From contig JAOZPT010000002.1 of the NCBI GenBank assembly GCA_029932605.1, positions 35,739-99,738 of the forward strand: a DNA stretch of 64,000 nt, written 5' to 3'. The DNA is from Candidatus Zixiibacteriota bacterium. Its GTDB lineage: Bacteria > Zixibacteria > MSB-5A5 > UBA10806 > 4484-95. Under the pieces are notes generated by a model. The model did not search any database, was not told where the DNA came from, and saw nothing but the letters and a program-made list of their open reading frames with translations. How positions within the stretch are numbered: position 1 is the stretch's first letter; every line of letters begins with the position of its first letter. Below are positions 3,532 through 51,179 of this stretch, in pieces. Made by a program: the position numbers and the translations under genes.

Positions 3532-3543
3532 TTAATTTCCTTT

Positions 3544-6129: not shown

Positions 6130-6261
6130 AGCTAATTAACCACTTCATTAATTTATCGTCAACAAAATGCTCGTTAAAAGCTTAAAACCTGTATCTTCTT
6201 TTTACAACCTTGCTCAAGCCAATATTGTCAATTTAATATTTTAAATCAACCCTTTTAACCA

Positions 6262-18589: not shown

Positions 18590-19227
18590 CTTCCCACCTC
18601 GTTTAATACATCAGCTAAGATATGACTGTGACGTTTAATTTGCATTTGGCTTTTGACGTTTTCCAAAAGTATCGGTTGACCGTACTGCACAACAATCTCC
18701 GCAAAAGGTTTGGGTATTTGAAAACGGTCCCAGGATGAAAGCACCCATTTCTTCGAACTATTGCAGGATACCGGTATAATAGGCAAACCCGATCTGGAGG
18801 CTAAAAATATCACTCCGGGCTTGACAATTCCTCGGGGACCTTTGGGTCCATCAACCGTTATCGCTAAGTCTTTAGCCTTCTCATTTTTTATCATCCCGAA
18901 AAGACCGGAAACTCCCATCTTTGTCGATGAGCCTCGGATAGGGTAATAGCCCATACGCTTAACTATGCGAGCAATGATCTCACCATCGATATGAGTCGAT
19001 ATCAGAATGCCAATATTTCTATTGCGGTGAGTATAACAAAGACTGAGAATACGGTTATGCCAGAAACAGAATATTACTTTACCGTATTTTGCCCTGCACT
19101 GATTTAGCTCGGTTTTGCCCACATATCTTATTTTCCATGTTGAGCCGATAAGTTTGATAATAAACGGCCCGAGAAAACGAGCAACAAACAGTAAAAGTTT
19201 TTGCTTTAATGTGAAGCTCTTGTCCAT
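18580..19227 (-). CDS. DUF374/lysophospholipid-acyltransferase-like protein commonly linked to waaA
   Basis: Seen in sequence: 215 aa with an H-x4-D-like acyltransferase signature (FWHNR, DGEIIARIV). It overlaps waaA by 10 nt. Established knowledge: DUF374 genes frequently sit next to kdtA/waaA. Confidence 0.55.
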   Translation of the reverse strand: MDKSFTLKQKLLLFVARFLGPFIIKLIGSTWKIRYVGKTELNQCRAKYGKVIFCFWHNRILSLCYTHRNRNIGILISTHIDGEIIARIVKRMGYYPIRGSSTKMGVSGLFGMIKNEKAKDLAITVDGPKGPRGIVKPGVIFLASRSGLPIIPVSCNSSKKWVLSSWDRFQIPKPFAEIVVQYGQPILLENVKSQMQIKRHSHILADVLNEVGSCT

Positions 19228-19514
19228 TATAATAGGAAATATTAATCTACAAACCAGTCAAAGTCAATTTTAATGTAGTTACAATTAAGATATAGTGAAC
19301 CTTTAATAGTTGACCCTTTCCAGAGTTAATTAAAAACTGGCTTTTTCTGAGATAGGTGCGAGGCTGGAAAACATCGCCTATTAGGGTGGTGTTTTTGAAA
19401 ACTGTAATTTTGAGATTTTTTAGTGGAACTCCTCGTATAATTCTAACTGACTTAAAAAATTATTGACATAATTAAATATAGTGGCACAGCATTTTTGTGT
19501 TTGAAAAATAGTCA

Positions 19515-19718
19515 GTGAACTTTGTTATGATAAAAGCAAAATTACCTAAAGCCATTATTGGTAATTATTGGCTAGTTATTGTTGTATTCCTTTTTACCAC
19601 TCTATTTCAAGAAGTATCAGCTCAGTGGCAAGTTACTGGAGCTATAATCAGAGACCCTATTAGTCCTATTGACGACGAGATTATTATCCCTGACCAGTAT
19701 TGTATTACTAAACATTAG
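19515..19718 (+). CDS. Candidate small secreted protein, possibly frameshifted with the overlapping ORF 19669-19869
   Basis: Seen in sequence: GTG/ATG start, then a signal-peptide-like IIGNYWLVIVVFLFTTLFQEVSAQ. The +1 frame continues through a Cys-rich stretch (CGGFYCVWEGGC) up to the lpxB stop. No homology support. Confidence 0.25.
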   Translation: MNFVMIKAKLPKAIIGNYWLVIVVFLFTTLFQEVSAQWQVTGAIIRDPISPIDDEIIIPDQYCITKH

Positions 19719-19870
19719 TATCTTGGATGGTGGAAGATTGGGTACTCCAGTAATATTTTCAGATAATTTTGCGATTTCTCCTGATTTGTGTGGCGGATTT
19801 TATTGTGTCTGGGAAGGAGGTTGTATATTTTTACAACATGAAGTAAGAAATTTGCCTTTAATGGCCTGAT

Positions 19871-21013
19871 TTATGTTTTCGTAATATCACTTTGCATTAG
19901 CTCCACCGCCGCTACAGCCGCTTTTTTTGCTGCACCCGAATCACCCAGCTTTGATTTTATATGTGATAACTGCTCTTTAACCAGCCGGTAATATTTATCA
20001 TCCTCAAGATATTTCATGGTGATATCAGCGATATTTTCAGCGGTGCAATCATTTTGAATCAGTTCCGGCACAATCCGTTTGCCAGCCACCACATTGACCA
20101 GACCGATATCGGGAATTTTTACCAGGTTACGGGCTATACAATACGTTACAAACGAGGTCTTATAAACAACAACCATGGGCGTGCCGATTATTGCACATTC
20201 CAACGTTGCGGTGCCGGAACAGACAATATTCATCTTAGCATATGCCATAAGCTCATAATTGATACCCTCAAGAACGGTAACATTGATACCATAGCGGTCG
20301 ATTATCTCTCTATAAACCGATTCATCTAAAGCTGGAGATCTACTGATAACGCCCTTGATGTTTTTGTCTTTAATTATTTTCAAAGCCGATAGCATCTCCG
20401 GTAAAATCTTTTTGACCTCCTGCTCTCTTGAACCGGGGAATAATCCAATTAAAATATCATTATCCTCAAGGTCAGCTTTGTGGCGGAACTCTTCCTCTGT
20501 TAAAGATATCTTTACCGTATCTATAAGGGGATGACCAACCCATTTGACCGGAATGGCCGCTTTTTCGTAGATATCTTTCTCAAACTCGAAAATTGTCGCC
20601 ATCATATCGACACTATTTCTTATCTTGTTAACACGCTTTTCGCCCCAGGCCCATATCTGTGGACTGATGTAATAAAAAATTTTAACGCCGCGTTTTTTTA
20701 ATTTTGGTGCCAGGCGAAGGTTGAATCCGGGGTAATCAATAAGCACTGCCATTTTCGGTTGAAGCTCGTCCGCCAGGGAAAGGAGCTCTTTTTTAACATG
20801 ACGCAGAAACCATAAATTTCTTAACACCTCCCAAAACCCAAAAAAGGCCAGACTTTTAATATGATAAGTGAGATTGACACCAGCCTTAGCCATCATATCG
20901 CCACCAAGTCCAAAAAATCTGCAATCCGGTCGAATTTGTAAAAATTCTCGAACGAAACCAGCACCATGCATGTCGCCTGAGGCTTCACCTGCAATTATCA
21001 AAATATGGTTCAT
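19871..21013 (-). CDS. lpxB: Lipid-A-disaccharide synthase
   Basis: Seen in sequence: MNHILIIAGEASGDMHGAGFVREF, the canonical LpxB N-terminus, in a GT19 fold. 380 aa. Confidence 0.9.
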   Translation of the reverse strand: MNHILIIAGEASGDMHGAGFVREFLQIRPDCRFFGLGGDMMAKAGVNLTYHIKSLAFFGFWEVLRNLWFLRHVKKELLSLADELQPKMAVLIDYPGFNLRLAPKLKKRGVKIFYYISPQIWAWGEKRVNKIRNSVDMMATIFEFEKDIYEKAAIPVKWVGHPLIDTVKISLTEEEFRHKADLEDNDILIGLFPGSREQEVKKILPEMLSALKIIKDKNIKGVISRSPALDESVYREIIDRYGINVTVLEGINYELMAYAKMNIVCSGTATLECAIIGTPMVVVYKTSFVTYCIARNLVKIPDIGLVNVVAGKRIVPELIQNDCTAENIADITMKYLEDDKYYRLVKEQLSHIKSKLGDSGAAKKAAVAAVELMQSDITKT

Positions 21014-21993
21014 AGATTTTTCTGGTATTCGATACAGAGTTGCTCGATATGTTTAGCCACTTTCAAAGCGGAAAAGCCAGCCTCTCCCGAGACGGCAGGC
21101 GGATGTTTTCCCTTGACCGCATCGATAAATGAATTTATCTCCATCTGAAGACTATCAGTGGAGGGGATATCAATATCCTCCCTGACAATGACTCGTCCGT
21201 CGGGAAGGTTAAATCGTGAGAATAACCCAGCATTCTTTGCCAATGGCGAATCAGGTTCAGTCAGAATAAAAGATTCCAGCTCTGATGACGCCATATCCAT
21301 CGAAATATAGCCTGATTTCTGGAAAACCCTAAGTTTTCGCATCTCCTTTAAAGATATCCGGCTGGCGGTTATATTAGCCACACAACCGGTGGGAAATGTC
21401 AGACGGGCGTTGACTATATCAAGCGTATCTGTGATAACTCCTACTCCTGCGGCTTCAACCGATGAGGGTTCACTGCCTATGATATCCAGAAGGAGGTCGA
21501 TATCGTGAATCATCAAATCGAGTATCACAGCCACATCATGACCTCGACCCTTAAAAGAGGCTAATCTGTGAGTTTCTACAAAGCGGGGTTTATCTATCTT
21601 TAGCCTGGCCGCCTGGTAGACCGGATTAAATCTTTCGCTATGGCCTATCTGTAATACCGCATTGTTCTTCCTGGCTGCCTCAACAATCTTCTCGGCAGAA
21701 TCCAAATCAGGAGCGATGGGCTTTTCCAGAAGCACCGCTATTTTATTTTCAAGAAATGGTAAAGAGCATTCGAGATGGTTTTGAGTTGGAACGGCAATGC
21801 AGACCGCCTTGACCTCACCGATAAATTCTGTCAACGACCTAAAAACCCGGCAATTGAATTCAGAGGCAACCTCCTGGGCTTTATCCGAAACGATGTCAAA
21901 ACACCCAATGAAATCTACATCAGGTGAAGATGTAAGTTTGGCGGCGTGGAATTTTCCCATATGCCCACAGCCTATTAACCCAGCCCTGACTAT
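21010..21993 (-). CDS. Gfo/Idh/MocA-family NAD(P)-dependent oxidoreductase (GnnA-like position in the lpx cluster). The N-terminus extends upstream of the first ATG, with a probable non-canonical ATA start
   Basis: Seen in sequence: the frame stays open upstream of the tracked ATG (21958-21960) and encodes ...IVRAGLIGCGHMGKFH..., i.e. the Rossmann GxGxxG. There is no ATG/GTG/TTG between that motif and the upstream in-frame stop. A strong SD, AGAAAGAGGAG (complement of 22001-22011), lies 7 nt upstream of an ATA (complement of 21991-21993), which overlaps the lpxA TAG stop as ATAG. Confidence 0.75.
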   Translation of the reverse strand: MVRAGLIGCGHMGKFHAAKLTSSPDVDFIGCFDIVSDKAQEVASEFNCRVFRSLTEFIGEVKAVCIAVPTQNHLECSLPFLENKIAVLLEKPIAPDLDSAEKIVEAARKNNAVLQIGHSERFNPVYQAARLKIDKPRFVETHRLASFKGRGHDVAVILDLMIHDIDLLLDIIGSEPSSVEAAGVGVITDTLDIVNARLTFPTGCVANITASRISLKEMRKLRVFQKSGYISMDMASSELESFILTEPDSPLAKNAGLFSRFNLPDGRVIVREDIDIPSTDSLQMEINSFIDAVKGKHPPAVSGEAGFSALKVAKHIEQLCIEYQKNL

Positions 21994-22763
21994 TTGATTA
22001 CTCCTCTTTCTGATGAGCGGATAAAATCGACTACCCGTTTAACCTCCGAAATCATTTCAATCTCTTCCTCTATCTTCTTTAAGGCCTCAGATGTTTTGAG
22101 CTTTTTGGAGAGCAAAAAATGAAATGCCTTTTTCAATTTTAAGATGACGTCTGCAGAAAACCCTCTTCGTTTAAGGCCGATTGTGTTCAGACCCAGGCAT
22201 CTCAATGGGTACCCGGCATCCAGACTGAAAGGTATTATATCCTGAGTAATCCGGAAACCACCACCCACCATCACATGTTCACCTATCTTACAAAACTGGT
22301 GGATCACTGTGCCCCCTCCTATTATGGTATAATCGCCAATCTCGACATGGCCTCCCATCTCCACGCAGTTGGCGATTATAACATCAGAACCTATTATGCA
22401 ATCATGAGCGACATGCGAATAGGCCATGAACAGACAGTTATTACCAATTTCGGATTTTCCATGGGCAGCGGTGCCACGGTTTAACGTAACATACTCACGG
22501 ATTATGCAGTTTGCACCAACTACGAGTTCGGTTTTCTCGCCAGCATATTTAAGATCCTGTGGAGGACCGGCTATGGCTGCGCCATGATATATCTTACAAC
22601 CCGGACCTATATGTGCCCCTGATTTTATTGAGACATGCGAATCGATCCAGACATTTTCACCGATGAGGACATCATCCTCGATAATCGAGTAAGGCCCAAT
22701 TGTGACACTGTCAGATATTTTTTTCAGATTTGCTATTATTGCGGTCTGGTGTATGTCCGGCAT
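21990..22763 (-). CDS. lpxA: Acyl-ACP--UDP-N-acetylglucosamine O-acyltransferase
   Basis: Seen in sequence: left-handed beta-helix hexapeptide repeats throughout and the LpxA-type N-terminus (IHQTAIIANLKKISDSVTIGPYSII). 257 aa. Confidence 0.9.
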   Translation of the reverse strand: MPDIHQTAIIANLKKISDSVTIGPYSIIEDDVLIGENVWIDSHVSIKSGAHIGPGCKIYHGAAIAGPPQDLKYAGEKTELVVGANCIIREYVTLNRGTAAHGKSEIGNNCLFMAYSHVAHDCIIGSDVIIANCVEMGGHVEIGDYTIIGGGTVIHQFCKIGEHVMVGGGFRITQDIIPFSLDAGYPLRCLGLNTIGLKRRGFSADVILKLKKAFHFLLSKKLKTSEALKKIEEEIEMISEVKRVVDFIRSSERGVIK

Positions 22764-31886: not shown

Positions 31887-32531
31887 GTGTTAAAGGTTAA
31901 TTACCTTCTATTAACAATGAAAACCGACCGTGAAGTCAAACTGGGAGTTTCTCCTTTATCATTACAGGTTACCTCGGAATATCAGAAACTATTGAACCAA
32001 TCAGGTTACACCCCATCGGGAGGTAATTACCCTTTGATTCAATATAAGGTTATTCGGGGAGCACCGATCATCGTGGCTGTTAATGAGGGATGCGATGTTC
32101 TCTGGAATATTTATGATTGCTTGGATGAAATAAACGAAAGAAGCACATGGGAGATTACCGAAAAACGGATTATCGATAAAAAAGTAAACCTTGGGCCGAC
32201 CGATAAGTGGGTGCGATATCGATTCTTAACACCATGGTTGACTATTCCCGCTGAGGAACTTGGCAAAAAGACTCAAAATAACTTACAACAGAAAAACAAA
32301 ATCCTTACTCCTGTGTTGGAAAATAACTTTCTGGGTATAGCCCGTAATTTCGATATCCCTGTTGAAGATGAAATAAATATCAATTTAAATGTCAGGGATA
32401 ATTTCATTATTCAGAAAGACACTGGTGTAGCTGGCTTTTTCGGTACATTCTATGCAAATTTCGAATTGCCACCATTTTTGGGACTTGGTAGGTCGATTTC
32501 CCGTGGTTTTGGTACGATTAAACATAATTAA
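31887..32531 (+). CDS. Cas6-like RAMP endoribonuclease homolog (orphan; no CRISPR array or other cas genes in the window)
   Basis: Seen in sequence: the C-terminal GLGRSISRGFGTIKH matches the Cas6 glycine-rich loop consensus G-h-G-x5-G-h-G, positioned ~10 aa from the C-terminus as in Cas6 (compare P. furiosus GVGSKTALGFGRI). Size is 214 aa. Flanked by ~250 bp AT-rich spacers. Inference. Confidence 0.4.
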   Translation: MLKVNYLLLTMKTDREVKLGVSPLSLQVTSEYQKLLNQSGYTPSGGNYPLIQYKVIRGAPIIVAVNEGCDVLWNIYDCLDEINERSTWEITEKRIIDKKVNLGPTDKWVRYRFLTPWLTIPAEELGKKTQNNLQQKNKILTPVLENNFLGIARNFDIPVEDEININLNVRDNFIIQKDTGVAGFFGTFYANFELPPFLGLGRSISRGFGTIKHN

Positions 32532-32766: not shown

Positions 32767-33360
32767 ATGTCTGGGAAGAAAGACAAGAAGTCAAAAGCAG
32801 AAGCTATTGGTAGTGAAAAAGAAAAAAAGGCTTCTAAAGCAGCCGGCAAGCCTAAAGCTGGAGTTTCGGTTGTAGATATTAAGGAAAGTGAAGAGTATAA
32901 GGAGCTTGAGGATAAATACTTAAGGCTTGCGGCCGAGTTTGAAAATTTCAAAAAAAGAAGCGCCCGCGAATTCTCCCGCCTCATCGAGACTGCCAGTGAT
33001 GATTTGATGCTTGAGTTACTGGAGGTCATCGATGATTTCCAGAGAGCACTACAGCTTGAACATTCTAATATCAAGGCTTTCCAGAAAGGTACTGAGCTGA
33101 TATATAATAAGCTTGGTGAAATCCTACGTAGAAGAAACTTAAAGGAGATAAAGGCTGTTGGTGAAGCTTTCGATCCAATGTATCACGAAGCCGTTATGCA
33201 AAAAGAGGTTGAGGACAAAGAGGATGGAATAATTATCGAGGAATTACAAAAAGGATACCTTGTTAACGATAGAGTCCTGCGACCTTCGAGAGTGGTTGTC
33301 GCCAAGAGGAAATTGCCAGAGCCCGATGAGTCAAATAATAATGATGTAAGCGAAAATTAG
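32767..33360 (+). CDS. grpE: Nucleotide exchange factor GrpE
   Basis: Seen in sequence: a coiled-coil N-terminus (LEDKYLRLAAEFENFKKR), then the conserved GrpE core (VGEAFDPMYHEAVMQ). 197 aa. Confidence 0.9.
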   Translation: MSGKKDKKSKAEAIGSEKEKKASKAAGKPKAGVSVVDIKESEEYKELEDKYLRLAAEFENFKKRSAREFSRLIETASDDLMLELLEVIDDFQRALQLEHSNIKAFQKGTELIYNKLGEILRRRNLKEIKAVGEAFDPMYHEAVMQKEVEDKEDGIIIEELQKGYLVNDRVLRPSRVVVAKRKLPEPDESNNNDVSEN

Positions 33361-33589
33361 CGGGGTTTAATAAAGGGACATCTTTTTCGACTAATTAATT
33401 AAAGCCTGGTTAAATAATTTGTACTCGAGAATCAGCGTTCTTCGATATGTTATTTATTAAAAATACAAGGTTCAAAAAGCTGGTTACAGACGTTTTTTTA
33501 TAATAGTTGGTTTTAAGAATTATTAATCAAAAATAGATACAAATGTAATTTAGTTTAATATGATGACATAAAACATATCAAAAGGAGTT

Positions 33590-34462
33590 TTGATGACACG
33601 GATTATCGGTATCGTCAACTTAAAAGGTGGTGTGGGTAAGACAACAACATGTGTTAATCTTGGAGCCGCTCTTGCTTTAAAAGGGCAGAAAGTGCTTTTG
33701 ATTGACTTAGACCCCCAACAGAGCCTGACCAGCTGGGCAGGGATAGACCAGTGGCCGACAATAAGCAATGTACTCTCCGGTGAAACGGATGCTTCTCAGG
33801 CGATTGTTAAATGGGAGAAGACCGGTTGCTGGGTAATCCCATCCGGGGAAGATCTGCGCTTGAAAGAAAATCAGCTTACAACGCTTGATCAACGCGAGTT
33901 TGTCCTGAAAAATAAATTGCAGATATTGGAAGATTTCGACTATATGTTTATAGATACTTCCCCATCCTATGGACTTTTGACAATTAATGCTATTTGCGCC
34001 TCAACCGAGATTATCATCCCCTTGCAGACTGAGATACTGGCTCTTGAAAGCACAATCCCATTTTTCGATACCCTGGGAGATATAAAAGAAAGATTTCACC
34101 CACGGTTGAAAATTACCGGTATTTTACCGTGCATGTTTGATGCACGCACCCGTTTGTCTAAAAATACTCTTGACCAGATGAGGTCATCAGAATACCTCGG
34201 ACCGCTTTTATTTAAAACATTCATAAGGAAAAATGTCAGGTTGGCTGAAACTCCCGCTCAGGGTTTTGCTGTAACCCGATATTCATCAGCTTATGGTGCC
34301 GAGGACTATATAGCCCTGGCTGAGGAGGTTCATAGCAGAGGCGGAGAACTGGGAATTGAGGTTTTACCCGACGATAAAAACGGAATTGAAATGGATTCAG
34401 CAGAAGTAATATCATCAGAATCTCAATCGCCTAATCTAATGGGAAAATCAGATGATCTTTAA
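33590..34462 (+). CDS. ParA/MinD-family P-loop ATPase (orphan; no parB seen)
   Basis: Seen in sequence: deviant Walker A (NLKGGVGKTTT), Walker A' and Walker B (LIDLDPQ, FIDTSPS). 290 aa with an acidic tail. Confidence 0.85.
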   Translation: MMTRIIGIVNLKGGVGKTTTCVNLGAALALKGQKVLLIDLDPQQSLTSWAGIDQWPTISNVLSGETDASQAIVKWEKTGCWVIPSGEDLRLKENQLTTLDQREFVLKNKLQILEDFDYMFIDTSPSYGLLTINAICASTEIIIPLQTEILALESTIPFFDTLGDIKERFHPRLKITGILPCMFDARTRLSKNTLDQMRSSEYLGPLLFKTFIRKNVRLAETPAQGFAVTRYSSAYGAEDYIALAEEVHSRGGELGIEVLPDDKNGIEMDSAEVISSESQSPNLMGKSDDL

Positions 34463-34530
34463 TGCGATAAACTAAAGATATAATTTTTATGAAACCAGAC
34501 GTTTGAAAACAGGTAGGTGAGATGAGTGTT

Positions 34531-34752
34531 ATGAAGATTTCTATTGAATACTGCGTTGAGTGAAATTATGAACCGCAAGCGACCAGTTTGGCCACAGCTT
34601 TGAAGAAACGTTTTGGCGTAAAGTCCCAATTGATTAAATCGGGCGGGGGTGTATTTGAGATTGTAAAAGACGATGTTTTGATTTTCTCCAAAAAGCAAAC
34701 CGGAAGATTCCCGGAGCATGATGAGATTTTCGAAAAGATAAAGGAAAAATAA
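34531..34752 (+). CDS. SelW-like (Rdx family) selenoprotein with an in-frame TGA (Sec) at 34561-34563
   Basis: Seen in sequence: MKISIEYCVE-[TGA]-NYEPQATSLATALKKRFGVKSQLIKSGGGVFEIVKDDVLIFSKKQTGRFPEHDEIFEKIKEK. The TGA falls exactly at the CxxU position of SelW/Rdx proteins, and the downstream frame keeps the family hallmarks (GGGVFEI, LIFSKK, GRFPE). AGGTAGGTGAG lies upstream; an alternative in-frame ATG is at 34522. Not in the ORF track because of the TGA. Confidence 0.65.
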
Positions 34753-34985
34753 AATAATTTTTTAACAGTAAAAGATATTTTTTTATTCGATTAAAAAAGG
34801 CCACCGATATCATACAGTTTTTTAACATCAAACCTGACAAATTGCTTTTTTAATTTGAACTTGCTTTAAAATTTTCAAATATTTATATTTTTTAACGTGG
34901 AGAAAATATCGGGATATTCTATAATTACGATTTATGACATTAAAGTAGCTTTTAATGAAAAATCATATAAGGTGTATTTAACATA

Positions 34986-35810
34986 ATGTTTACGCTTTTG
35001 AAATATGTTTTCTCGGTAGTTATCTGGGCTGTTGTTGCGGCAGCTTTCCTGATTGCTAAGAGTCCAGAGCTATTCTTGTTCTGGGTGTTGATAGGCGCTG
35101 TTTTGATACTATCCTGGTTGGTCAAATTCATTTGGAAATGGATCGTGGGCATATTTTTCCCCACTATTATGATAAGGTCATTCGCTTTATTTATCATGCT
35201 TGCTATTATTTTATTTGCTCTTGTATACCAGGCTATTATCGTCCCGGGTTTGAATCACTGGGGCACAACTAAAAACGAACTGGAAAAACAATACCCTATA
35301 GATAAGTTCCTCCCTCAGTCTAAAACAGTGGCTTATCGGGCGGTCACAATCGATGCGCCGGTGAATAGAGTTTACCCGCTGATAGAACAACTGGCTACCG
35401 AGGGGCTTTTGAATTTTAATGTAAACATTTTCGATTTGCTCAAAAATGAACCAGCTATGTTCATATTCAAAAAAACAGAAAGCTTTAATGGCCTTTCCAA
35501 TATTAATGTGGGTGACAGATTTTTAGTGGGCGAGATAGTCCAGGCAGAAAGGAATCGCAGCTTGACTTTAAAGCTGGATCAGCGAAGGTTTCCCTGGAAT
35601 AAGTTCAATAATATTTATGCCGGCTATTACCTTGACAAACAGGGGAAAAATAAAACAAGAGTGGTGATGAAAATCAAAGCCGATTACGAGGGATATTTTG
35701 CCTGGTTTTCTGCGAAATATTTAATAGAACTGGGCGACTACTGGGTCTCTCGTTACCAATTAAATACCGTTAAGATGATGGCTGAGGCCCCGGTTACTGA
35801 GAAGGGTTAA
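34986..35810 (+). CDS. Membrane protein with a C-terminal SRPBCC/START-like soluble domain (hypothetical)
   Basis: Seen in sequence: three N-terminal TM helices, then a ~150-aa alpha/beta-looking domain. Weak inference. Confidence 0.4.
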   Translation: MFTLLKYVFSVVIWAVVAAAFLIAKSPELFLFWVLIGAVLILSWLVKFIWKWIVGIFFPTIMIRSFALFIMLAIILFALVYQAIIVPGLNHWGTTKNELEKQYPIDKFLPQSKTVAYRAVTIDAPVNRVYPLIEQLATEGLLNFNVNIFDLLKNEPAMFIFKKTESFNGLSNINVGDRFLVGEIVQAERNRSLTLKLDQRRFPWNKFNNIYAGYYLDKQGKNKTRVVMKIKADYEGYFAWFSAKYLIELGDYWVSRYQLNTVKMMAEAPVTEKG

Positions 35811-35874
35811 AAATGACTACCCGTTTTTGCTGTGTATTAACCTCAAATCCAATGAACTTATCGAGCAGTTAAAG

Positions 35875-37104
35875 ATGTCAGAATTGTTATATTTAATCAT
35901 AGGCATCGTTGTCGGGGTTATTGTCGTCCTGTTGATTTCTTACCTGAGGAGAAAAGATACTAAAGCTTTGGCTCAGCAGTTGGTTTTGGATGCTCAGGCG
36001 GAAAAGCTAAAGGACTTAGAAAGTTTTTTAGGCAGGATAAAAGAGTCTTTTGATTCAGTATCCATGGAGGCACTGAACAAAAGCTTAAAACAACATCTGG
36101 AAATTGCAAAAAGTGCGCTGTCAGAGCAGTCAGCCCTGGGGGCTAAAGAGCTGGAGAGCAAAAAGGATTTAATTTCCCAGACTTATAAATCGATGAAAGA
36201 TGAGCTGGAGAAAGTTAGCAGTTTGATAACGGAATTTGAGAAGGACCGCCAGAAGAAATATGGAGAGTTGACAAACCTTCTCAGCAATACGAGCAATGAA
36301 CTGAATCGTCTTCAGGAAACAACGGGTAAGCTGACCACCGCCTTATCCAGCGCCAGCATGAGAGGCCAATGGGGTGAAAGAATGGCAGAGGATGTCTTGA
36401 AGTTGGCGGGTTTTATTGAGGGTATTAACTATTATAAACAGAAAACTCTCGAGAGCTCAAGATACCGCCCCGATTTTACATTTACATTGCCCAATAATCA
36501 AAAAATTAACATGGATGTTAAGTTTCCATTTGACAATTATTGGCATTATTTAGAGGCTGATAATTCTGATGATAAGAACAGATTCAAAAACATGTTTTTA
36601 AGAGATGTTAGAAATCATATACGAGACGTTACTTCTCGTGATTATATCAATCCTGATGATAACACCTTGCCATATGTCATAATGTTTATTCCTAACGAAC
36701 AAGTCTACTCGTTTATCAATGAAAGTGACAGGTCAATACTTGACGAAGCCATCGAAAATAAGGTGGCTTTATGCTCACCGTTGACGCTTTTTGCTATACT
36801 GGCCATAATCAGGCAGGCGGTTGAAAATTTTAAGTTGGAAAGTACAGCAGGCCAGATGTCATCTTTGATGGGCAATTTCAAAAAACAGTGGGAACTGTTC
36901 ATCGCAGGTATGAATAAAATGGGTAAACGAATAGATGATGCACAGAGAGAATACAACAGGCTGGTTACGACCCGTAAAAACCAGCTTCAAAAACCGCTGG
37001 ACAAAATAGAAGAGCTGAGAATACAAAAGGGTTTGCCGATATCTGAGATTGAAGAGGTCGGGTTTGATGAAGAAAACTTTCTTGATGTTAAAAACGATGA
37101 TTAA
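35875..37104 (+). CDS. rmuC: DNA recombination protein RmuC
   Basis: Seen in sequence: an N-terminal TM helix (MSELLYLIIGIVVGVIVVLLISYL), a long coiled-coil, and the RmuC C-terminal nuclease-like core (RGQWGERMAEDVLKLAGF...PDFTFTLPNNQKINMDVKFP). The ATG at 35875 is preferred over the tracked TTG at 35827. Confidence 0.75.
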   Translation: MSELLYLIIGIVVGVIVVLLISYLRRKDTKALAQQLVLDAQAEKLKDLESFLGRIKESFDSVSMEALNKSLKQHLEIAKSALSEQSALGAKELESKKDLISQTYKSMKDELEKVSSLITEFEKDRQKKYGELTNLLSNTSNELNRLQETTGKLTTALSSASMRGQWGERMAEDVLKLAGFIEGINYYKQKTLESSRYRPDFTFTLPNNQKINMDVKFPFDNYWHYLEADNSDDKNRFKNMFLRDVRNHIRDVTSRDYINPDDNTLPYVIMFIPNEQVYSFINESDRSILDEAIENKVALCSPLTLFAILAIIRQAVENFKLESTAGQMSSLMGNFKKQWELFIAGMNKMGKRIDDAQREYNRLVTTRKNQLQKPLDKIEELRIQKGLPISEIEEVGFDEENFLDVKNDD

Positions 37105-37259
37105 TCTTTTTAAATTTAAAAGTATTAAAGTTGAATAAAAAATTAAACATTCTTTTTGGTCTTTAGTTATTATTTTGTGCTGTTGCATTTTTAATAAAAA
37201 TATGTTATATAAATTAATCATATAGATTTATACTATGAAAGCAAAGGAGTTAAAATAAA

Positions 37260-39194
37260 ATGTCAAAAGTGATAGGAATAGACCTTGGCACTACTAATTC
37301 ATGCGTGGCGGTAATGGAGGCTGGTGAGGCGAAAGTCATCACCAATCCTGATGGCTCTCGCACCACTCCCTCGGTGGTGGCTTTTACAAAAACCGGCGAA
37401 AGGCTTATCGGCCAAACTGCCAAAAGGCAGGCGATAACCAACCCGGAAAACACGATATTCTCCATCAAACGGTTTATGGGGCGTCGCCATGGTGAGGTTT
37501 CCTCGGAGGAGAAAATTGTTCCTTACAAAGTGACTCATGCCCCCAATGACGACGTTCGAGTAATAGCTCAGGGTAAAGAATATGCGCCACCGGAAATATC
37601 GGCAATGATTCTTCAGTATCTCAAAAAAGCAGCTGAGGAATATCTTGGTGAAACCGTTACTAAAGCAGTAATTACTGTACCAGCTTATTTCAATGACAGT
37701 CAAAGGCAAGCAACCAAGGATGCCGGTGAGATTGCCGGTCTTGAGGTGCTTCGGATTATTAACGAACCAACAGCTGCTTCTCTGGCTTACGGCCTTGACA
37801 AGAAAAAAGACCAGAAAATTGCAGTATTTGACCTAGGAGGTGGCACTTTTGACATCTCGATACTGGATTTGGGCGAGGGAGTATTTGAAGTAAGGGCTAC
37901 AAACGGTGATACACATCTGGGTGGTGACGATTTCGATCAACGGATCATTGATTATCTGGCAGATGAGTTCAAAAAAGACCAGGGTATTGATCTCCGGCAA
38001 GATAGAATGGCTTTGCAACGATTGAAAGAGGCCGCTGAAAAGGCAAAGTGCGAGCTATCGACAACTATGCAAACCAACATTAATCTACCCTTTATAACTG
38101 CTGACCAGTCAGGCCCGAAACATCTTGATATGACATTAACACGTGCCAAGCTAGAACAATTATGTGATGACTTAATTCAACGTGTAATCGAACCCTGTCG
38201 CCAAGCTTTAGAGGATGCCAAGCTCTCCACCGGCGATATCAATGAAGTTATATTGGTTGGTGGAATGACGCGTATGCCAAAGGTTCAGGAAACTGTCAAG
38301 GAGCTTTTCGGACGAGAACCTCATAAGGGAGTCAATCCCGATGAGGTGGTGGCAGTTGGAGCGGCCATTCAAGCCGGTGTTTTAGCCGGTGATGTTAAAG
38401 ATGTACTTCTTCTGGATGTTACCCCACTATCTCTTGGTATCGAAACTCTTGGCGGTGTTTTCACCAAGCTTATCGAACGCAACACCACAATTCCCACTAA
38501 AAAGTCGCAGATATTTTCCACGGCGGCTGACAATCAACCAGCTGTTTCCATCAATGTGCTTCAGGGTGAACGTGAAATGGCAATAGACAACCGCACGTTG
38601 GGAAGATTCGATTTGGTTGGCATTCCTCCCGCTCCTCGAGGCGTACCGCAGATCGAGGTTACTTTCGATATCGATGCTAATGGTATCATGCATGTTTCAG
38701 CCAAGGACCTTGGAACGGGCAAAGAACAATCAATCAAAATCGAATCCTCTTCTGGATTAACTGAACAAGAGATTGAGCGGATGAAGAAAGATGGGGAACT
38801 TCATTCGGAAGAGGATAAGAAGCGCCGTCAACTTGTCGAAGCTAAGAACAAAGCTGACTCAATGATATACACAACCGAGAAGTCGCTCAAAGAATATGGT
38901 GATAAAATATCCGAAGATGACAAGAAGAAAATTGAACAGGCAATAAACACCTGTAGAGAGGCTATGAAATCCGACGATACCGAGCGGATAAACAAGACTG
39001 TCGAAGAGTTGATGACAGTCTCGCACAAACTGGCAGAGGAGATCTATAAAAAGACATCCACTGAGAGTAAGCAGACCGCCGGTGACCAAACGGCGGAAAC
39101 AAAGAAAGCTCATACTGCCGATTCCGGTGACAAGGGCAAGGGTAAAGACGAGGGGGCAGTTGATGCAGACTTTGAAGTTGTCGATGATAAATAA
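37260..39194 (+). CDS. dnaK: Molecular chaperone DnaK (Hsp70)
   Basis: Seen in sequence: [40 protein letters not shown] and a C-terminal lid with an acidic tail. AAAGGAG SD. 644 aa. Confidence 0.97.
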
Positions 39195-42347: not shown

Positions 42348-43616
42348 TTATTTCAACAACATCATCTTGCGAAAGATGGCCTGGTCAGGGGTTTTAAGAC
42401 TGTAAATATATAAACCCGAGGAAACCTTATCGCCATTTTTATCCGTGCCATCCCACCAGAGCGATCGACGATAATTAACTGAACCATCAAATAAAACCTT
42501 AACCAGTTTGCCGACAATATCGTAAATTTCGATCCGGGCATATCCCGGCTTTTCAAGGATAAACTCGATTAACGTTCGGTTGTTAAATGGATTTGGGTAA
42601 TTTTGATAAAGAGTAGTCGATGAAGGTATAAGGGGTTGATTGTCAAAGACACCGGATGAAAAATCATAAATATAAATGCCATCTTCAGTGCCGGCAAAGA
42701 GTCTACCGTTGGCATCAATTTCAAGACTGTAAACATTGAGGTTATCTAAGCTGTCGTTAAAGGGTGAAAAAGTGGCACCTGCATCTGTAGAGATAAGCAC
42801 TCCACCGTTGGAAACTGACCCTACAAATAACCTGCCAGCAATCTGCGGGTCACAGGCAATTGGTACATTATCAACAGTGCTTGTGGGTGTATATTCCCAA
42901 TCCAGACCGCCGTTGAAGGATATAGCTACATAAGCATAGCATGAAACATAAAGGGTCTCCGGACCGTTGGGTTCATACTCGATTCTGTTAGGGTTGTAAT
43001 CCTCAAGGTTAAAAAGCCCCCCTATATCTTCCCAGCTGTTGGCGAAATCGGTTGTATGAGCTACAAAGGTTTCACCCACTGCGTAAGCCTCTAATTGATT
43101 GGTGCCATCACCTTTAATATCGATGATGTTCAGGTCGGGAAGACCTATATTAGCGCTTGAGTAGGTTTGAAAACTATCCTGTGATTTCAGTATACCATCC
43201 TCGAAACAGATATACATGAAACCAGGGTTGACCGGGTCAAACCCCAGACGGCGAGGATTTAACATATAACTTCTTGGCCACCAACCATTACCGTTATCAA
43301 TCGAATAATGGATCCCATCCGACCATGAACCACCAGCTAAAAGTGCCCATAGTGTATCATTATCATGAGGGTCGTAAGATAAAAACGGAACGTTGAGATT
43401 AACAAATTGACGATCCCAGGATTGACCGCTGTTGAAGCTTACAAATAATCCACTATCTGTTCCAGCGCAGATATATTGAGGATTAATAGGGTCGATCTCT
43501 ATGGACAATACCCGCATATCGGAAAGCCCCAGAAACTCCCAGTAGTTAGCACTGGCAGAGACCGCCAGTAAAGCTATTAATAAAACAACTATTAATATAG
43601 TTTTTCTGATCATCAC
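42348..43616 (-). CDS. BNR/Asp-box repeat beta-propeller protein with a T9SS C-terminal sorting domain
   Basis: Seen in sequence: signal peptide, repeated S-x-D-x-G-x-x-W/F Asp-box motifs (FNSGQSW, SIDNGNGW, TDFANSW, SFNGGLDW, STDAGATF). The C-terminal YQNYPNPFNNRTLIEF...SGLYIYSLKT block matches the T9SS CTD. Confidence 0.7.
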   Translation of the reverse strand: MMIRKTILIVVLLIALLAVSASANYWEFLGLSDMRVLSIEIDPINPQYICAGTDSGLFVSFNSGQSWDRQFVNLNVPFLSYDPHDNDTLWALLAGGSWSDGIHYSIDNGNGWWPRSYMLNPRRLGFDPVNPGFMYICFEDGILKSQDSFQTYSSANIGLPDLNIIDIKGDGTNQLEAYAVGETFVAHTTDFANSWEDIGGLFNLEDYNPNRIEYEPNGPETLYVSCYAYVAISFNGGLDWEYTPTSTVDNVPIACDPQIAGRLFVGSVSNGGVLISTDAGATFSPFNDSLDNLNVYSLEIDANGRLFAGTEDGIYIYDFSSGVFDNQPLIPSSTTLYQNYPNPFNNRTLIEFILEKPGYARIEIYDIVGKLVKVLFDGSVNYRRSLWWDGTDKNGDKVSSGLYIYSLKTPDQAIFRKMMLLK

Positions 43617-45100: not shown

Positions 45101-45865
45101 TTAGTAGCCCTCTAAATCTGGTGAACTTTTAATATTAATCGCCTCCACTATTAAAAGAGGATCACCCTGTTTGTAACGGGTAAAATCGTAATTAGCAAAT
45201 TCTTTTGTCAGCTGAAAACCGGTTTTTTTTAGCAAGTCGTGAATATTATTTCTGTTGATTATGCCAACAAGAGAATGTTCTTCAATTCTATCTACAAGTT
45301 TACCATGGATATATTTTTCAAAAACAAGGATTGTTTCTCGTTTTTTATTGGAGAGAATTTTTCCACCTACATAACGACGATATTCTGTTTCACCTTCTGT
45401 AACCTTTCCCGAAGGAGATAACGGAGAATCTTTCATCATTCCCAAAAAGACATCAAAAATGAGTTTACTGTTTGGCCGCAAATGTTTACCGATGTTGGAA
45501 AGTGCTAAAAACCGTTCTCTGTCATCCAGCAAGTGATCAAAACATCCGGAAAGAAATGCAGCCGGGAAAGTTCTATTCAATTTAAAAGATATAGCGTTGC
45601 TGTCTATCAGCATAATATTTGCTAATAGTTTTTTTCTTTTTGATATTTTCCTGATAAATTCCTTTCTCATGGCTGGGGATGGTTCAATACAGAAAACCTT
45701 TATACCTTTCTCTGCCAGAGGGATTGCGATGCGACCGGTTCCTGCTCCGATATCAAGAATTTCACCTGATTCAGAAGCGTAATGATAAAAGAATTCGATG
45801 TTTTCTTTGGTATCGAATAGATCATACAGGTGAGCGCACTTTTCATATCCTTTATTGAGAGTCAT
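45101..45865 (-). CDS. Class I SAM-dependent methyltransferase
   Basis: Seen in sequence: motif I (ILDIGAGTGRIAIPLAEKG) and motif II/post-I acidic residues. 254 aa. Confidence 0.75.
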   Translation of the reverse strand: MTLNKGYEKCAHLYDLFDTKENIEFFYHYASESGEILDIGAGTGRIAIPLAEKGIKVFCIEPSPAMRKEFIRKISKRKKLLANIMLIDSNAISFKLNRTFPAAFLSGCFDHLLDDRERFLALSNIGKHLRPNSKLIFDVFLGMMKDSPLSPSGKVTEGETEYRRYVGGKILSNKKRETILVFEKYIHGKLVDRIEEHSLVGIINRNNIHDLLKKTGFQLTKEFANYDFTRYKQGDPLLIVEAINIKSSPDLEGY

Positions 45866-45870
45866 ATGTT

Positions 45871-46254
45871 CTAACGGGGTGCACAGGCGCTTAAATATTT
45901 TCCCCAGTTGACCTGAGTGATCTGAAGGATATTACCATCAGGATCTGTGAGAGTTGTCATACGAGCGCCCCATTGAGTATCCTTTGGGGCCTCTGTGAAA
46001 TACGCTCCTTTTTCTTTCAGGTAATTATAGGATTTATCAATATCATCTACAATGAAATTGATGCAAGGCTCACCTTTGCGGGGCTTTTCAAGTTCACCCC
46101 AGGTTTTCAATCCAATTTCAACACCTCCGCAATCGAATCCCGCATAATCCCTAAACTCGTATTTCTTTTGCAAACCGAGTATGTTCTCATAAAAACTCAC
46201 CGCTCTTCCAAGGTCAGATACCGTTAGTGTAATATCCCAGATTCTTTTAATCAT
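45871..46254 (-). CDS. VOC (glyoxalase/bleomycin-resistance/dioxygenase) family protein
   Basis: Seen in sequence: 127 aa. A betaalphabetabetabeta module N-terminus (ITLTVSDLGRAVSFYENILGL) typical of the VOC family. Confidence 0.65.
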   Translation of the reverse strand: MIKRIWDITLTVSDLGRAVSFYENILGLQKKYEFRDYAGFDCGGVEIGLKTWGELEKPRKGEPCINFIVDDIDKSYNYLKEKGAYFTEAPKDTQWGARMTTLTDPDGNILQITQVNWGKYLSACAPR

Positions 46255-47951: not shown

Positions 47952-48480
47952 TTTATTTCCTCCATCAATTTATTGATGCGATCAATATCTTTTTGTATTG
48001 AAATGATTCAAACTTGGATATAAGCTTTTAGGGCATTATCACCTCCTTGTGACCCATTGGGTATCTTGTATATGGTTAACTGGTCATCTATAAATGTATT
48101 ATCGATGTTTTTAATAATAAATTTACAATATTTAAATAAATAATAACCAAATAAACCTTAAAAGTCAGTATAACTGTCACAACTAATTATTTTGCAAAAT
48201 GATACAGTGATAATAACAATGTAAGGCAAGCCTAAATTTTTTTGTTAACCTTTTGTTTTTATTCAGGTTATGTTTTTTTTCGATATTTTAGGAAGATGTT
48301 TTCAAGGAAAAATGGTGTTTAAAAATGAAAAGGTCAAATATTTTTCAATAAAGTACCCCACAGTAAATATAATACACTAGCCTTACAATAAAATAAAAAG
48401 AGTAATTAAGGTGTTACAGTTCGTTAAATTTCGGTTTTGTTGCTCATCAAGGTATTTTTTAGTTTTATCTATTTTGCAGA

Positions 48481-48514
48481 AAATAAAAAAAGGCGCTCCT
48501 GAATGAAGAGCACC
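48481..48514 (-). terminator. Intrinsic terminator for the small basic protein gene
   Basis: Seen in sequence: on the minus strand, stem ggugcuc-uucauucag-gagcgcc (one G-U pair), then UUUUUUUAUUUU (complement of 48481-48491). Confidence 0.5.
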
Positions 48515-48523
48515 TTAGAATGG

Positions 48524-48649
48524 TCACCTTTTCTTTTTGTGGAGGTGACAATACTTTGCAGGTGGTGTTACCATACGTTTACATCTTTTCCCCGTCGATG
48601 TCTTTCCTGCACAACGGACTTTTCTCCTGGGCTTCTTTTTAGTTGGCAT
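48524..48649 (-). CDS. Small basic Cys/His-rich protein (41 aa; putative zinc-ribbon-like), MPTKKKPRRKVRCAGKTSTGKRCKRMVTPPAKYCHLHKKKR
   Basis: Seen in sequence: ATG preceded by a perfect AAGGAGG SD with a 6-nt spacer. Cysteine/histidine pattern C-x9-C-x10-CH-x-H. An upstream promoter and downstream terminator were identified. Below the ORF-track length cutoff. Confidence 0.55.
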   Translation of the reverse strand: MPTKKKPRRKVRCAGKTSTGKRCKRMVTPPAKYCHLHKKKR

Positions 48650-48701
48650 TTAACCCCTCCTTAAGTTAAATGATGCCTCAGAATCCTCTGCCATTCTGTT
48701 T

Positions 48702-48728
48702 TTTATATCAAATACAATTTTATGTCAA
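48702..48728 (-). promoter_or_regulatory. Sigma70-like promoter (TTGACA-15/17-TATAAA) for the small basic protein gene. The ~50-nt 5'UTR carries a cagaau/auucug hairpin
   Basis: Seen in sequence: minus-strand TTGACA (complement of 48723-48728) and TATAAA (complement of 48702-48707). The 5'UTR cagaauggcagaggauucug forms a 6-bp stem. Confidence 0.4.
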
Positions 48729-49206
48729 CAATAAAAAAATTTTTTACATATATTTTTTCATGGTTTTACCGGTTAATCACTTTCGGTCTTTTTAAGAACT
48801 TAAAAGTCGTAAAGAACTATCTCCCCGAATATCGATAAATTTATACTAATTTTAACCAAAAGATAGGTTACCTTTTTAAGATTGATTCAATATCAAATAT
48901 CGCTTCTATAAATTCCTTCAGTTAACCCGACTGAAATAAAAATACCAAAAGTAATGATGAATCTATTAAAAACGTCCTGCTTTTATAGATGTGACATAAT
49001 TGGAATACTTAACGCAAAATACTGGGCAGTACTGAGGATTCATCATGACAAAAAAGAATATTAGCATTAATTACATAAAATTGATATATTATTTACGTGA
49101 ATGGCTCAAGTTGTCATGTGCCATTTAGTTTTCATTTAACATCGTGTAACCCCCGGAAGTATTCTGTGCAGGAAATATCCTGTTAAAAACATAATCTTAG
49201 CAAAAC

Positions 49207-49236
49207 TTGACATTTCCTCACAACAATATGTATTTT
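49207..49236 (+). promoter_or_regulatory. Putative sigma70-like promoter for the moxR/Bat operon
   Basis: Seen in sequence: TTGACA (49207-49212), an 18-nt spacer and TATTTT (49231-49236), ~65 nt upstream of the moxR ATG with GGAGG SD. Confidence 0.35.
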
Positions 49237-49301
49237 GTTTTTTGTCGATGGGAACATCAGGCACAAAAAATATGTAAAAACTTGAAAAAATCGGAGGTTT
49301 A

Positions 49302-50282
49302 ATGGATCCACAGATAGAGGAAATTCAAAAAGTTGTTGACAGACAGGGAGCTTTTGTTAGACGGCTGACAGATGAGATTGGCCTGGTTATTGTTGGCCAG
49401 AAGTATATGGTGGAAAGGCTTCTAATTGGCCTTTTAGCCGACGGCCATATCTTAATCGAAGGTGTACCGGGGTTAGCTAAAACTCTGTCAGCTAAGACCC
49501 TTTCTGATGCTGTGCAAACCACCTTCAAACGTATTCAGTTTACACCTGATTTATTACCAGGTGATTTAACCGGCACCATGGTTTACCAGAACGGTAAATT
49601 CATAGCTCGCAAAGGTCCAATTTTTGCCAATTTTATTTTGGCCGACGAGATAAACCGTGCTCCAGCTAAAGTCCAATCGGCATTACTTGAAGCCATGCAG
49701 GAACGTCAGGTCACAATTGGAGACCAAACATATCAATTGCCCAAACCTTTTCTTGTATTAGCCACACAGAACCCTATTGAGCAGGAAGGGACCTATCCGT
49801 TGCCGGAAGCTCAAGTTGACAGGTTCATGCTCAAACTGAAGATCGATTACCCTGACCGTGATGAGGAATTGAAAATCCAGGAGCGTATGGCTGTTAAGGA
49901 TGTGCCACACATAACCCCTGTCATCACCCCCGAGGAAATTTTGGCAGCCAGAGAGGCTGTTTATAATATCTACATAGATGAAAAGGTGAAAAACTATATC
50001 GTCGATATAGTAATGGCCAGCCGTAACCCCAAAAAGTATAATATCGACATAGAGGATTTAATTGCTTATGGAGCCTCACCGAGGGCTACGATTTATCTTA
50101 ATATTGCAGGACGAGCTCATGCCTTTTTACAGGGCCGGGCATATGTAACACCAGATGACATCAAACTGATCGGCCCAGATATTCTTCGCCACCGAATCAT
50201 ACTAAGTTATGAGGCTGAAGCGGAGGAACTAACCTCCGATGATATTGTGCAGAAAATCTTTGACGGTGTTGAAGTTCCTTAG
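49302..50282 (+). CDS. moxR: MoxR-family AAA+ ATPase
   Basis: Seen in sequence: Walker A (GVPGLAKT), Walker B (ILADEINRA) and sensor regions. 326 aa. Confidence 0.9.
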
Positions 50283-50285
50283 CAT

Positions 50286-51167
50286 ATGCTTCCACGCGAA
50301 CTTTTCAAGAAAATTAAAAAAATCGAGATTAAGACATCTCGGTTGGTCAACGATGTCTTTTCCGGTGAATACCATTCGATTTTTCGTGGCCGGGGGATGG
50401 AATTCTCCGAAGTACGTGAGTACATCTCCGGTGATGATATACGCACCATAGATTGGAACGTAACCGCCCGTTATAACCATCCCTACGTAAAGATCTACCG
50501 TGAAGAACGTGAGCTCACGGTAGTGCTTGCGGTTGACCTATCAGGCTCCGGCTCTTTCGGAAGCCTCCAGAAATTACGCAGGGAGATATCGGCCGAGCTT
50601 GCTGCTATTTTAGCATTCTCAGCCGTTAAAAACAACGATAAGGTTGGGCTTTTATTGTTTACTGATAAAATCGAAAAATTCATACCCCCAAAAAAAGGGC
50701 GTTTTCATGTGCTTCGGCTAATACGCGAGGTGCTATACTTTAAACCATCCGGAAAACGAACCAACTTAGCCGGAGCAATAGATTACCTCCTACGGGCAAT
50801 CAAAAAGAAAAGCGTGGTATTTCTAATATCCGACTTTTTAGATGAAAACTTTTTCAAGCCACTCGGTTTGGCCTCCAACAAACATGACCTTATCGCGGTG
50901 GAGATATATGACCCACTGGAAAGACGGATACCCGATGTTGGACTCGTCAATTTGGTTGACCTTGAATCGAATAAACATGTTCTTATCGATTTCTCCAGCA
51001 AAGATAATACTCGTACACTGGCACTGAAAGCTGAAACCATGAGAGCAAAACTGCATGAGTTTTTTCGGCGGCATAACATCGATATGATCGAATTAAGTAC
51101 CCATAAGGACTATACCCAGCCGCTTTACAGGTTTTTTGAACAACGTGCTAAACGTATACGGCGATAA
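50286..51167 (+). CDS. DUF58 (vWA-like) protein partnered with MoxR
   Basis: Seen in sequence: DUF58 hallmark (SGEYHSIFRGRGMEFSEVREYISGDDIRTIDWNVTAR). 293 aa, immediately downstream of moxR. Confidence 0.85.
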   Translation: MLPRELFKKIKKIEIKTSRLVNDVFSGEYHSIFRGRGMEFSEVREYISGDDIRTIDWNVTARYNHPYVKIYREERELTVVLAVDLSGSGSFGSLQKLRREISAELAAILAFSAVKNNDKVGLLLFTDKIEKFIPPKKGRFHVLRLIREVLYFKPSGKRTNLAGAIDYLLRAIKKKSVVFLISDFLDENFFKPLGLASNKHDLIAVEIYDPLERRIPDVGLVNLVDLESNKHVLIDFSSKDNTRTLALKAETMRAKLHEFFRRHNIDMIELSTHKDYTQPLYRFFEQRAKRIRR

Positions 51168-51179
51168 ACTTGAAATGCA

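Follow-up and report, generated by a model that had tools for sequence, protein, structure and literature searches.

Bacterial SelW-like selenoproteins have long been known as a family, and their genes are routinely annotated wrongly (PMC1088965, PMC1794560, PMC13188914). In the Sargasso Sea data, analysed in 2005, SelW-like proteins with a CxxU motif were the most abundant selenoprotein family, represented by 48 genes, each of them with a bacterial selenocysteine insertion sequence (SECIS) carrying a conserved G in its loop (PMC1088965). Further members were described from Geobacter, Desulfotalea, Alkaliphilus, Symbiobacterium and others, with few cysteine (Cys) forms in organisms that use selenocysteine (Sec) (PMC1794560), and a 2026 review of the prokaryotic selenoproteome places the SelW-like proteins under PF10262 with the CxxU motif (PMC13188914). 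Here we describe a gene of this kind at positions 34531-34752 (plus strand) of a 64-kb stretch of DNA from a Candidatus Zixiibacteriota bacterium, the whole of which is referred to below as the window. Judged by its sequence, 34531-34752 is a real small redox-protein gene of the Rdx/SelW-like family. We conclude that it is very probably a genuine SelW-like selenoprotein gene in which an in-frame UGA is decoded as Sec. The comparisons pointing to this reading are a frame kept across the UGA, a UGA kept in many phyla, the pairing of Cys and Sec forms at the same site, and a covarying hairpin with a G-U loop 22 nucleotides (nt) downstream.

Translation of 34522-34752 on the plus strand gave MSVMKISIEYCVE, a stop, NYEPQATSLATALKKRFGVKSQLIKSGGGVFEIVKDDVLIFSKKQTGRFPEHDEIFEKIKEK and a second stop, which reproduces the translation in the initial annotation of this DNA. 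The first stop is an in-frame TGA (34561-34563) three codons past a Cys codon, and 62 sense codons then lead to the TAA at 34750-34752. The gene extent given in the initial annotation stood as far as the TAA end and the internal TGA are concerned, but its start at 34522 probably needs revision. The ATG at 34531 is the more likely start codon because homolog N-termini (the equivalent of M-K-[IV]-x-I-E-Y-C) align to it and because the spacing of a Shine-Dalgarno-like AGGTGA (34515-34520, plus strand; read from the sequence, its role presumed) fits 34531. The gap between this element and the start codon is 10 nt for ATG 34531, as opposed to a single nucleotide for the other ATG at 34522. The coding sequence would thus comprise 73 codons and the TAA, with Sec as codon 11. 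The predicted redox motif C-V-E-U occupies residues 8-11 (34552-34563, plus strand) and consists of the Cys codon TGC (34552-34554), Val, Glu and the TGA.

For profile searches the stop was replaced by C (U to C) in the query protein. The match to Pfam Rdx (PF10262) had E=1e-20, scored 74.1 bits (cut-off 22.6) and took in positions 1-73 of the 74 in the model. With NCBIfam NF041051 ('SelT/SelW/SelH family (seleno)protein') the score was 94.9 bits (curated cut-off 88), with positions 1-70 of 70 aligned, and with TIGR02174 ('CXXU_selWTH') it was 67.1 bits (curated cut-off 34.2). Assignment to the SelW/Rdx family, proposed earlier without database searches, therefore holds with three models, all above cut-off. 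Since the PF10262 match covers both sides of the stop, the resemblance of the gene is not due to chance. The window protein retains the family motifs GGGVFE and LIFSKKQTGRFPE, at up to 66% identity to distant relatives. Homology to solved chains with the Rdx fold predicts an Rdx thioredoxin-like fold for it.

We scanned genomes (one per GTDB species) and metagenomes for homologous loci. Of the six peptides used as queries, five avoid the CxxU site and the remaining one calls for Cys at it, which means that the search did nothing to favour TGA. The genome scan returned 33 loci with 34-66% identity, and the CxxU codon was TGA in every one, with conserved sequence on both sides. These loci came from Zixibacteria, KSB1, Planctomycetota, Acidobacteriota, cyanobacteria, Desulfobulbaceae and other lineages. 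The metagenome scan yielded 55 loci, comprising 49 with TGA, four with Cys (L061, L066, L072 and L083) and two that were uninterpretable. Cys also stands at the window's UGA codon in the solved Cys-form Rdx chains 2ljk (MIEN1), 3dex, 2fa8 and 2ojl. Designer pentatricopeptide repeat proteins topped the PDB search; these were discarded as repeat-summing artefacts with no individually significant stretch.

Codon-position counts were obtained on either side of the TGA by comparing the window with 21 homologs. Over the nine codons upstream, 108 differences fell in third, 58 in first and 31 in second positions; over the eleven codons downstream the corresponding numbers were 128, 60 and 35. The third-position bias is found on both sides of the TGA, and a single frame has therefore been under protein-level selection across the stop. 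The initial annotation had argued that the stop falls exactly where the family carries Sec and that the family sequence continues in frame after it. Both statements are borne out, the one by the Cys found at this codon in solved and metagenomic Cys forms, the other by a frame conserved through the TGA in the homologs. The alignment with Cys and Sec homologs suggested there likewise came out in favour of Sec, with TGA throughout the genome loci and 49 TGA against 4 Cys forms in the metagenomes.

The TGA forms share a hairpin downstream of the UGA. With the U of the UGA taken as column 1, columns 18-25 pair with columns 29-36 round a three-base loop. Standard pairs filled 80.2% of the cells in 32 sequences, against 24-48% when the 3' partners were slid by 1-3 columns. 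Double-sided changes occurred in five of the eight pairs, and none of 500 shuffles matched the observed percentage paired or the covariation score. The loop bases are close to invariant, with G26 in 54 of 54 and U27 in 53 of 54 distinct Sec forms. In the same set, columns 21:33 were paired in 52 forms (40.8 expected if the columns were independent), as C-G, G-C, U-A or U-G, while 18:36 was paired in 31 (19.7 expected) and 22:32 in 37 (18.9 expected), each with several pair types. Pairs 18:36, 21:33 and 24:30 each link two third-codon positions, so protein constraint cannot account for their covariation. RNAalifold recovered only four pairs from the 32-sequence alignment, with a consensus energy near zero; we judged the pair counts on the named structure to be more informative.

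The four Cys forms, a small control, retain between none and five of the eight pairs, and the G-U loop is missing from three. A hairpin that serves Sec decoding and not amino-acid conservation would be expected to behave in this way. At 22:32 (34582/34592 in the window) an A/C mismatch was found in 14 of the 54 distinct Sec forms, the window included, with G-C or U-A in others. Such a non-canonical pair may be tolerated here or have a function, comparable to the bulge in the Escherichia coli SECIS.

The window's own copy of this element is a candidate bacterial SECIS hairpin at 34577-34600 (plus strand), homologous to the covarying family hairpin. The initial annotation had picked out the same hairpin (aagc...ccaGUUUgg...gcuu) without being able to fold it convincingly. 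The choice was correct, in that these positions coincide with the conserved SECIS-like element of the family, and the doubt was justified, the structure being thermodynamically marginal. In the upper part, CCA (34583-34585) pairs with UGG (34589-34591) round the loop GUU (34586-34588), followed by the A34582/C34592 mismatch and the pair G34581-C34593. Below this pair the usual G-C-rich pairs are replaced. The lower stem, AAGC (34577-34580) with GCUU (34597-34600), forms only if ACA (34594-34596) bulges out on the 3' side. The syntenic Zixibacteria-type copies L003, L004 and L065 also pair columns 19:38 and 20:37, and their pair 18:39 alternates between A-U and G-C. The shifted lower stem is common to these copies and is therefore no oddity of the window. 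A different hairpin at 34591-34617 (-6.0 kcal/mol, GAAG loop, 38-nt spacing) was rejected, as it is absent from the syntenic relatives.

In the published bacterial SECIS (bSECIS) model the apical loop measures 3-9 nt and has G as its first or second base, the upper stem comprises 4-16 base pairs (bp), 16-37 nt separate the UGA from the loop, and the minimum free energy is at most -7.5 kcal/mol (PMC13188914). The window's hairpin agrees with this model in its loop, which is GUU with the G first, and in its spacing, with 22 nt (34564-34585) between the UGA and G34586. Its upper stem consists of 3 bp, the A/C mismatch, 1 bp, a 3-nt bulge and 4 bp, so that whether it reaches 4 bp hinges on how the mismatch is handled.

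Several results weigh against decoding of this UGA as Sec, and they concern the hairpin in the window and the surrounding gene content. In the family register the hairpin has an energy of only -1.9 to -3.4 kcal/mol, well short of the bSECIS threshold, and is the weakest of the 32 copies, which have a median of -10.7 kcal/mol and of which 27 lie at -7.5 kcal/mol or lower. The 65-nt fold after the UGA is no more stable than shuffled sequences (z=-0.06), and the unconstrained fold favours non-homologous hairpins. A minimal 3-bp stem with a GUN triloop arises by chance at a rate of about 0.06 per allowed spacing window. Rfam includes SECIS models. A scan of the whole window at gathering thresholds found neither SECIS nor any other credible family, and the region downstream of the UGA, where the initial annotation had looked to RNA family models for confirmation, gave no SECIS in a permissive scan of 34400-34900, the three minus-strand matches at E~3 being chance. 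The metagenome scan supplied only the same organism (L042) and sequences of at most 66% identity, and hence none of the intermediate-distance relatives from which covariation within the lineage could be read. Taken from the window alone the SECIS evidence is weak; the SECIS case leans on homology to the covarying family element. As for gene content, ARAGORN found no tRNA, and so no tRNA-Sec, in the 64-kb window, no SelA, SelB or SelD Pfam domain was found among its 46 long open reading frames (ORFs), and a scan of the window for TGA-interrupted frames gave the SelW gene as the only one in a redox-type context. Prokaryotic SelW-like proteins as a group are graded 'predicted with high confidence' and are not experimentally verified (PMC13188914).

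Some of these observations would also be expected of a decaying or poorly decoded copy. Here the Sec trait would have been lost, or be in the course of being lost, with a degenerate SECIS, and the gene would produce mostly a 10-residue peptide and at best a 54-residue fragment starting at TTG 34588. A SECIS less stable than the other 31 copies and below the published energy threshold, a window of 64 kb with neither a sel gene nor tRNA-Sec, and a 54-residue ORF found by the Joint Genome Institute (JGI) gene caller that is still an Rdx match all fit this explanation. However, the frame is otherwise intact and all family motifs are retained. The hairpin has kept its upper stem, its G-U loop bases and its distance from the UGA, and at 21:33, a pair of third codon positions, it has a matched G-C. 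The bulged layout of the lower stem is shared with syntenic Zixibacteria copies that have stronger hairpins, and the 40% G+C of the window would favour A-U pairs in this part of the stem. Moreover, a fragment without the CxxU motif would have no active site. We regard decay of the gene as unlikely.

Alternatively, this could really be a Cys-form Rdx gene in which a TGC or TGT codon has recently mutated to the nonsense codon TGA, or in which the TGA is a sequencing or assembly error. A Cys codon and TGA are one base apart, and Cys forms do exist in the family, but the same TGA occurs across many phyla, in every one of the 33 genome relatives and 49 of the 53 interpretable metagenome loci. Error is further opposed by the 100% identity of the 330-nt locus in five independent metagenome assemblies (ENA ERZ2433807, contig NODE_2893; JGI 3300005265, Ga0073580_101336; ENA ERZ23491060, ERZ23491052 and ERZ27248458), in which the flanking sequence agrees with the window at about 99.7%. 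Either origin is opposed by the hairpin, which in the TGA forms covaries and has an invariant loop G and which in the Cys forms has deteriorated. The comparative data effectively refute this explanation, leaving it only a very small probability. Reassignment of UGA throughout the genome to Trp or Gly (genetic codes 4 or 25) has nothing specific to recommend it beyond the in-frame UGA itself. Under the standard code, 88% of the window (40.4% G+C) is covered by the 46 long ORFs with full-length Pfam domains, and TGA is the ordinary stop of ten of them. The relatives with the same TGA span many standard-code phyla, and no conserved in-frame UGAs were seen in other genes of the window. Reassignment is refuted by this stop-codon usage, and its probability is negligible.

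If the UGA is decoded as Sec, as we think very probable, recoding of codon 11 would create a Cys-x-x-Sec active site in a small thioredoxin-fold redox protein. By analogy with the E. coli paradigm (PMC1794560), SelB with GTP and Sec-tRNA(Sec) would bind the hairpin while the ribosome is at the UGA. Following the established bacterial mechanism, Sec would be delivered there in competition with release factor 2. The Cys/Sec pair would then be expected to cycle between a reduced selenolate/thiol state and a selenenylsulfide, as suggested by the family (PMC1088965) and by general knowledge of Rdx proteins, and the SelW-like protein may act as a thiol-dependent reductase helped by a cellular thiol. 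The window encodes BshC (bacillithiol biosynthesis) and, after it, a possibly BshA-like glycosyltransferase of family 4 (61006-63749, plus strand). Because BshC is present, it is tempting to speculate that bacillithiol, rather than glutathione, is the low-molecular-weight thiol and redox partner of the SelW-like protein. It is also conceivable, if improbable, that SelB reads little beyond the C-C-A/U-G-G stem and the G-U loop, which would make this a distinct minimal SECIS class, or that a labile, temperature-sensitive SECIS ties Sec insertion to the heat-shock locus in which the gene lies.

The gene marks an uncultured relative of the Zixibacteria as a probable Sec user and thereby predicts selA, selB, selC and selD elsewhere in the genome. 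ARAGORN found no tRNA-Sec in the flanks of 58 homolog loci, where the only tRNA genes were those for tRNA-Arg. Three larger ORF-poor gaps in the window contained nothing convincing as a selenoprotein gene.

Standard gene callers take UGA as a stop, and the gene is for this reason either skipped or cut to a 54-residue C-terminal fragment. It is uncalled in three of the four assemblies with listed gene calls, and the fourth, a JGI record, has a 54-residue 'Rdx' fragment, an ORF that does still match Rdx. In the mechanical ORF list of the window the only plus-strand ORF at the locus is likewise the 54-residue fragment after the TGA (34588-34752). The initial annotation had stated that this list misses the gene and shows two spurious antisense ORFs in its place. 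Both antisense ORFs (34459-34719 and 34634-34840, minus strand) are indeed listed, and neither has a Pfam match even at E<=1, but the plus strand is not empty, since the post-TGA fragment is on the list as well. The antisense frames are open in most homologs too, so that openness does not tell the strands apart. We rejected both as genes on the basis of the codon-position pattern and the missing family match.

The gene lies in a conserved chaperone neighbourhood, all of it on the plus strand. It begins with grpE (32767-33360; Pfam GrpE, E=7e-46), which is syntenic in L003, L004 and L065. Directly upstream of the SelW-like gene is a ParA/MinD-like P-loop ATPase gene (33590-34462; Pfam AAA_31 and CbiA), syntenic at 46% identity in the Zixibacteria loci. 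Directly downstream is a gene for a conserved hypothetical protein of 274 residues (34986-35810), which is syntenic at about 30% identity in L003, L004 and L065 and gave no Pfam family at E<=1. The neighbourhood ends with dnaK (37260-39194; Pfam HSP70, E=4e-278), syntenic in L004 and L065. The order grpE, parA-like, selW, 274-residue hypothetical, (rmuC), dnaK (32767-39194) is common to the Zixibacteria metagenome-assembled genomes (L003, L004, L065 and L045-L047), in which GrpE and ParA are 42-46% and DnaK 77-85% identical to the window's proteins; rmuC is present in the window and was undetected in the Zixibacteria loci. The shared gene order points to a host related to the Zixibacteria. No CIRCE operator was found in the window with up to three mismatches allowed. 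Just before grpE there is a lone Cas6b-like gene (31887-32531, plus strand) with matches to Cas6b_N and Cas6b_C, in the same layout in the organism's other assemblies. No other cas genes were detected nearby, and a tandem-repeat search detected no CRISPR array around it.

Other parts of the window give some idea of the host. Type IX secretion is represented at 250-10233 and 42348-43616 (both minus strand) by a 1093-residue FG-GAP protein with a Por secretion tail, an 861-residue PorV-like protein, a 1323-residue peptidase C25 (gingipain-like) and a further cargo protein with a Por secretion tail. These features suggest an organism of the Fibrobacteres-Chlorobi-Bacteroidetes (FCB) group. A lipid A/Kdo cluster at 16335-22763 (minus strand), with lpxK, a Kdo transferase gene, DUF374, lpxB, a GFO/IDH/MocA oxidoreductase gene and lpxA, indicates a Gram-negative envelope; the 640 nt between DUF374 and lpxB (19228-19870) contain no convincing ORF. 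An operon at 49302-57364 (plus strand) encodes, in order, a MoxR AAA ATPase, a DUF58 protein, two vWA proteins, a TPR protein, BatD and another TPR protein, and is similar to the Bacteroides aerotolerance (Bat) cluster. Its TPR/BatD junction contains a short tandem repeat rich in A and C (54547-54699). Between this MoxR/Bat operon and a MetA-pathway porin-like gene, 1.35 kb (47952-49301) hold no credible ORF, and none is called there in the JGI record. The same interval showed no repeat and no Rfam family above threshold; its only match, to a eukaryotic snoRNA model (27.7 bits, gathering threshold 40), is due to chance. The JGI contig of the same organism (L035) lacks, at its positions 15856-15857, about 200 nt found at 45836-46036 of the window. 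Its methyltransferase and glyoxalase calls are shorter than in other assemblies (248 and 77 residues against 254 and 127). The L035 difference is either a strain-level indel or an assembly difference.

The main value of the finding concerns annotation quality, as a real gene is skipped or fragmentary and, in the mechanical ORF list, spurious antisense ORFs stand in its place. It also adds an example of a low-G+C SECIS of low stability that present SECIS search thresholds would reject. General knowledge of selenoproteins is unchanged by this gene.

In comparison with known systems, the closest likeness is to the bacterial SelW-like selenoproteins (Zhang, Fomenko and Gladyshev 2005, PMC1088965; Zhang et al. 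2006, PMC1794560). The window gene shares with them the domain, a length of about 70-75 residues and the N-terminal CxxU, as well as an in-frame UGA followed by a coding-region hairpin with a G in its small apical loop, and it has met with the mis-annotation usual for the family. As described for these proteins, Sec forms outnumber Cys forms among its close relatives (PMC1794560). It differs in its host, apparently a Zixibacteria-related member of the FCB group, a lineage unmentioned for the family in the cited literature, and in a SECIS whose lower stem is bulged and A-U-rich and which lies under the usual stability threshold. The name of the equivalog model NF041051, 'SelTWH_Campy', refers to Campylobacterota, whereas the nearest genomic relatives of the window gene are in Zixibacteria, KSB1, Planctomycetota and other uncultured lineages. 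For this reason we take the NF041051 match as family membership and not as orthology.

Full-length homology extends to Cys-form Rdx structures, namely Atu0228 (2fa8), SAV_2001 (3dex), 2oka, 2obk, 2p0g and 2ojl (E=7e-8 to 2e-4), and to human MIEN1/C17orf37 (2ljk, also a Cys form; E=8e-9). The CxxC of 2ljk, 3dex, 2fa8 and 2ojl aligns with the window's CxxU. Unlike the window protein, these structures have Cys in place of Sec and are longer (about 100-117 residues), and the bacterial ones carry a W-L-x-R-A motif past the second Cys and lack the IFSKKQTGRFPE motif. The candidate SECIS is like the E. coli fdhF-type element and the bSECISearch consensus (PMC13188914) in lying within the coding region right after the UGA, with a 22-nt spacing, and in having a 3-nt loop (5 nt if read as A-GUU-U) that starts with G and then U and fits N1-G-[G/U]-N-N2. 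It is unlike that consensus in its energy, far above -7.5 kcal/mol, and in having only three uninterrupted upper base pairs before the A/C mismatch. The gene is an unannotated member of a selenoprotein family known since 2005 and represents an ordinary annotation gap. Its only unusual features beside the described members are the host lineage, the chaperone-locus neighbourhood and the sub-threshold SECIS.

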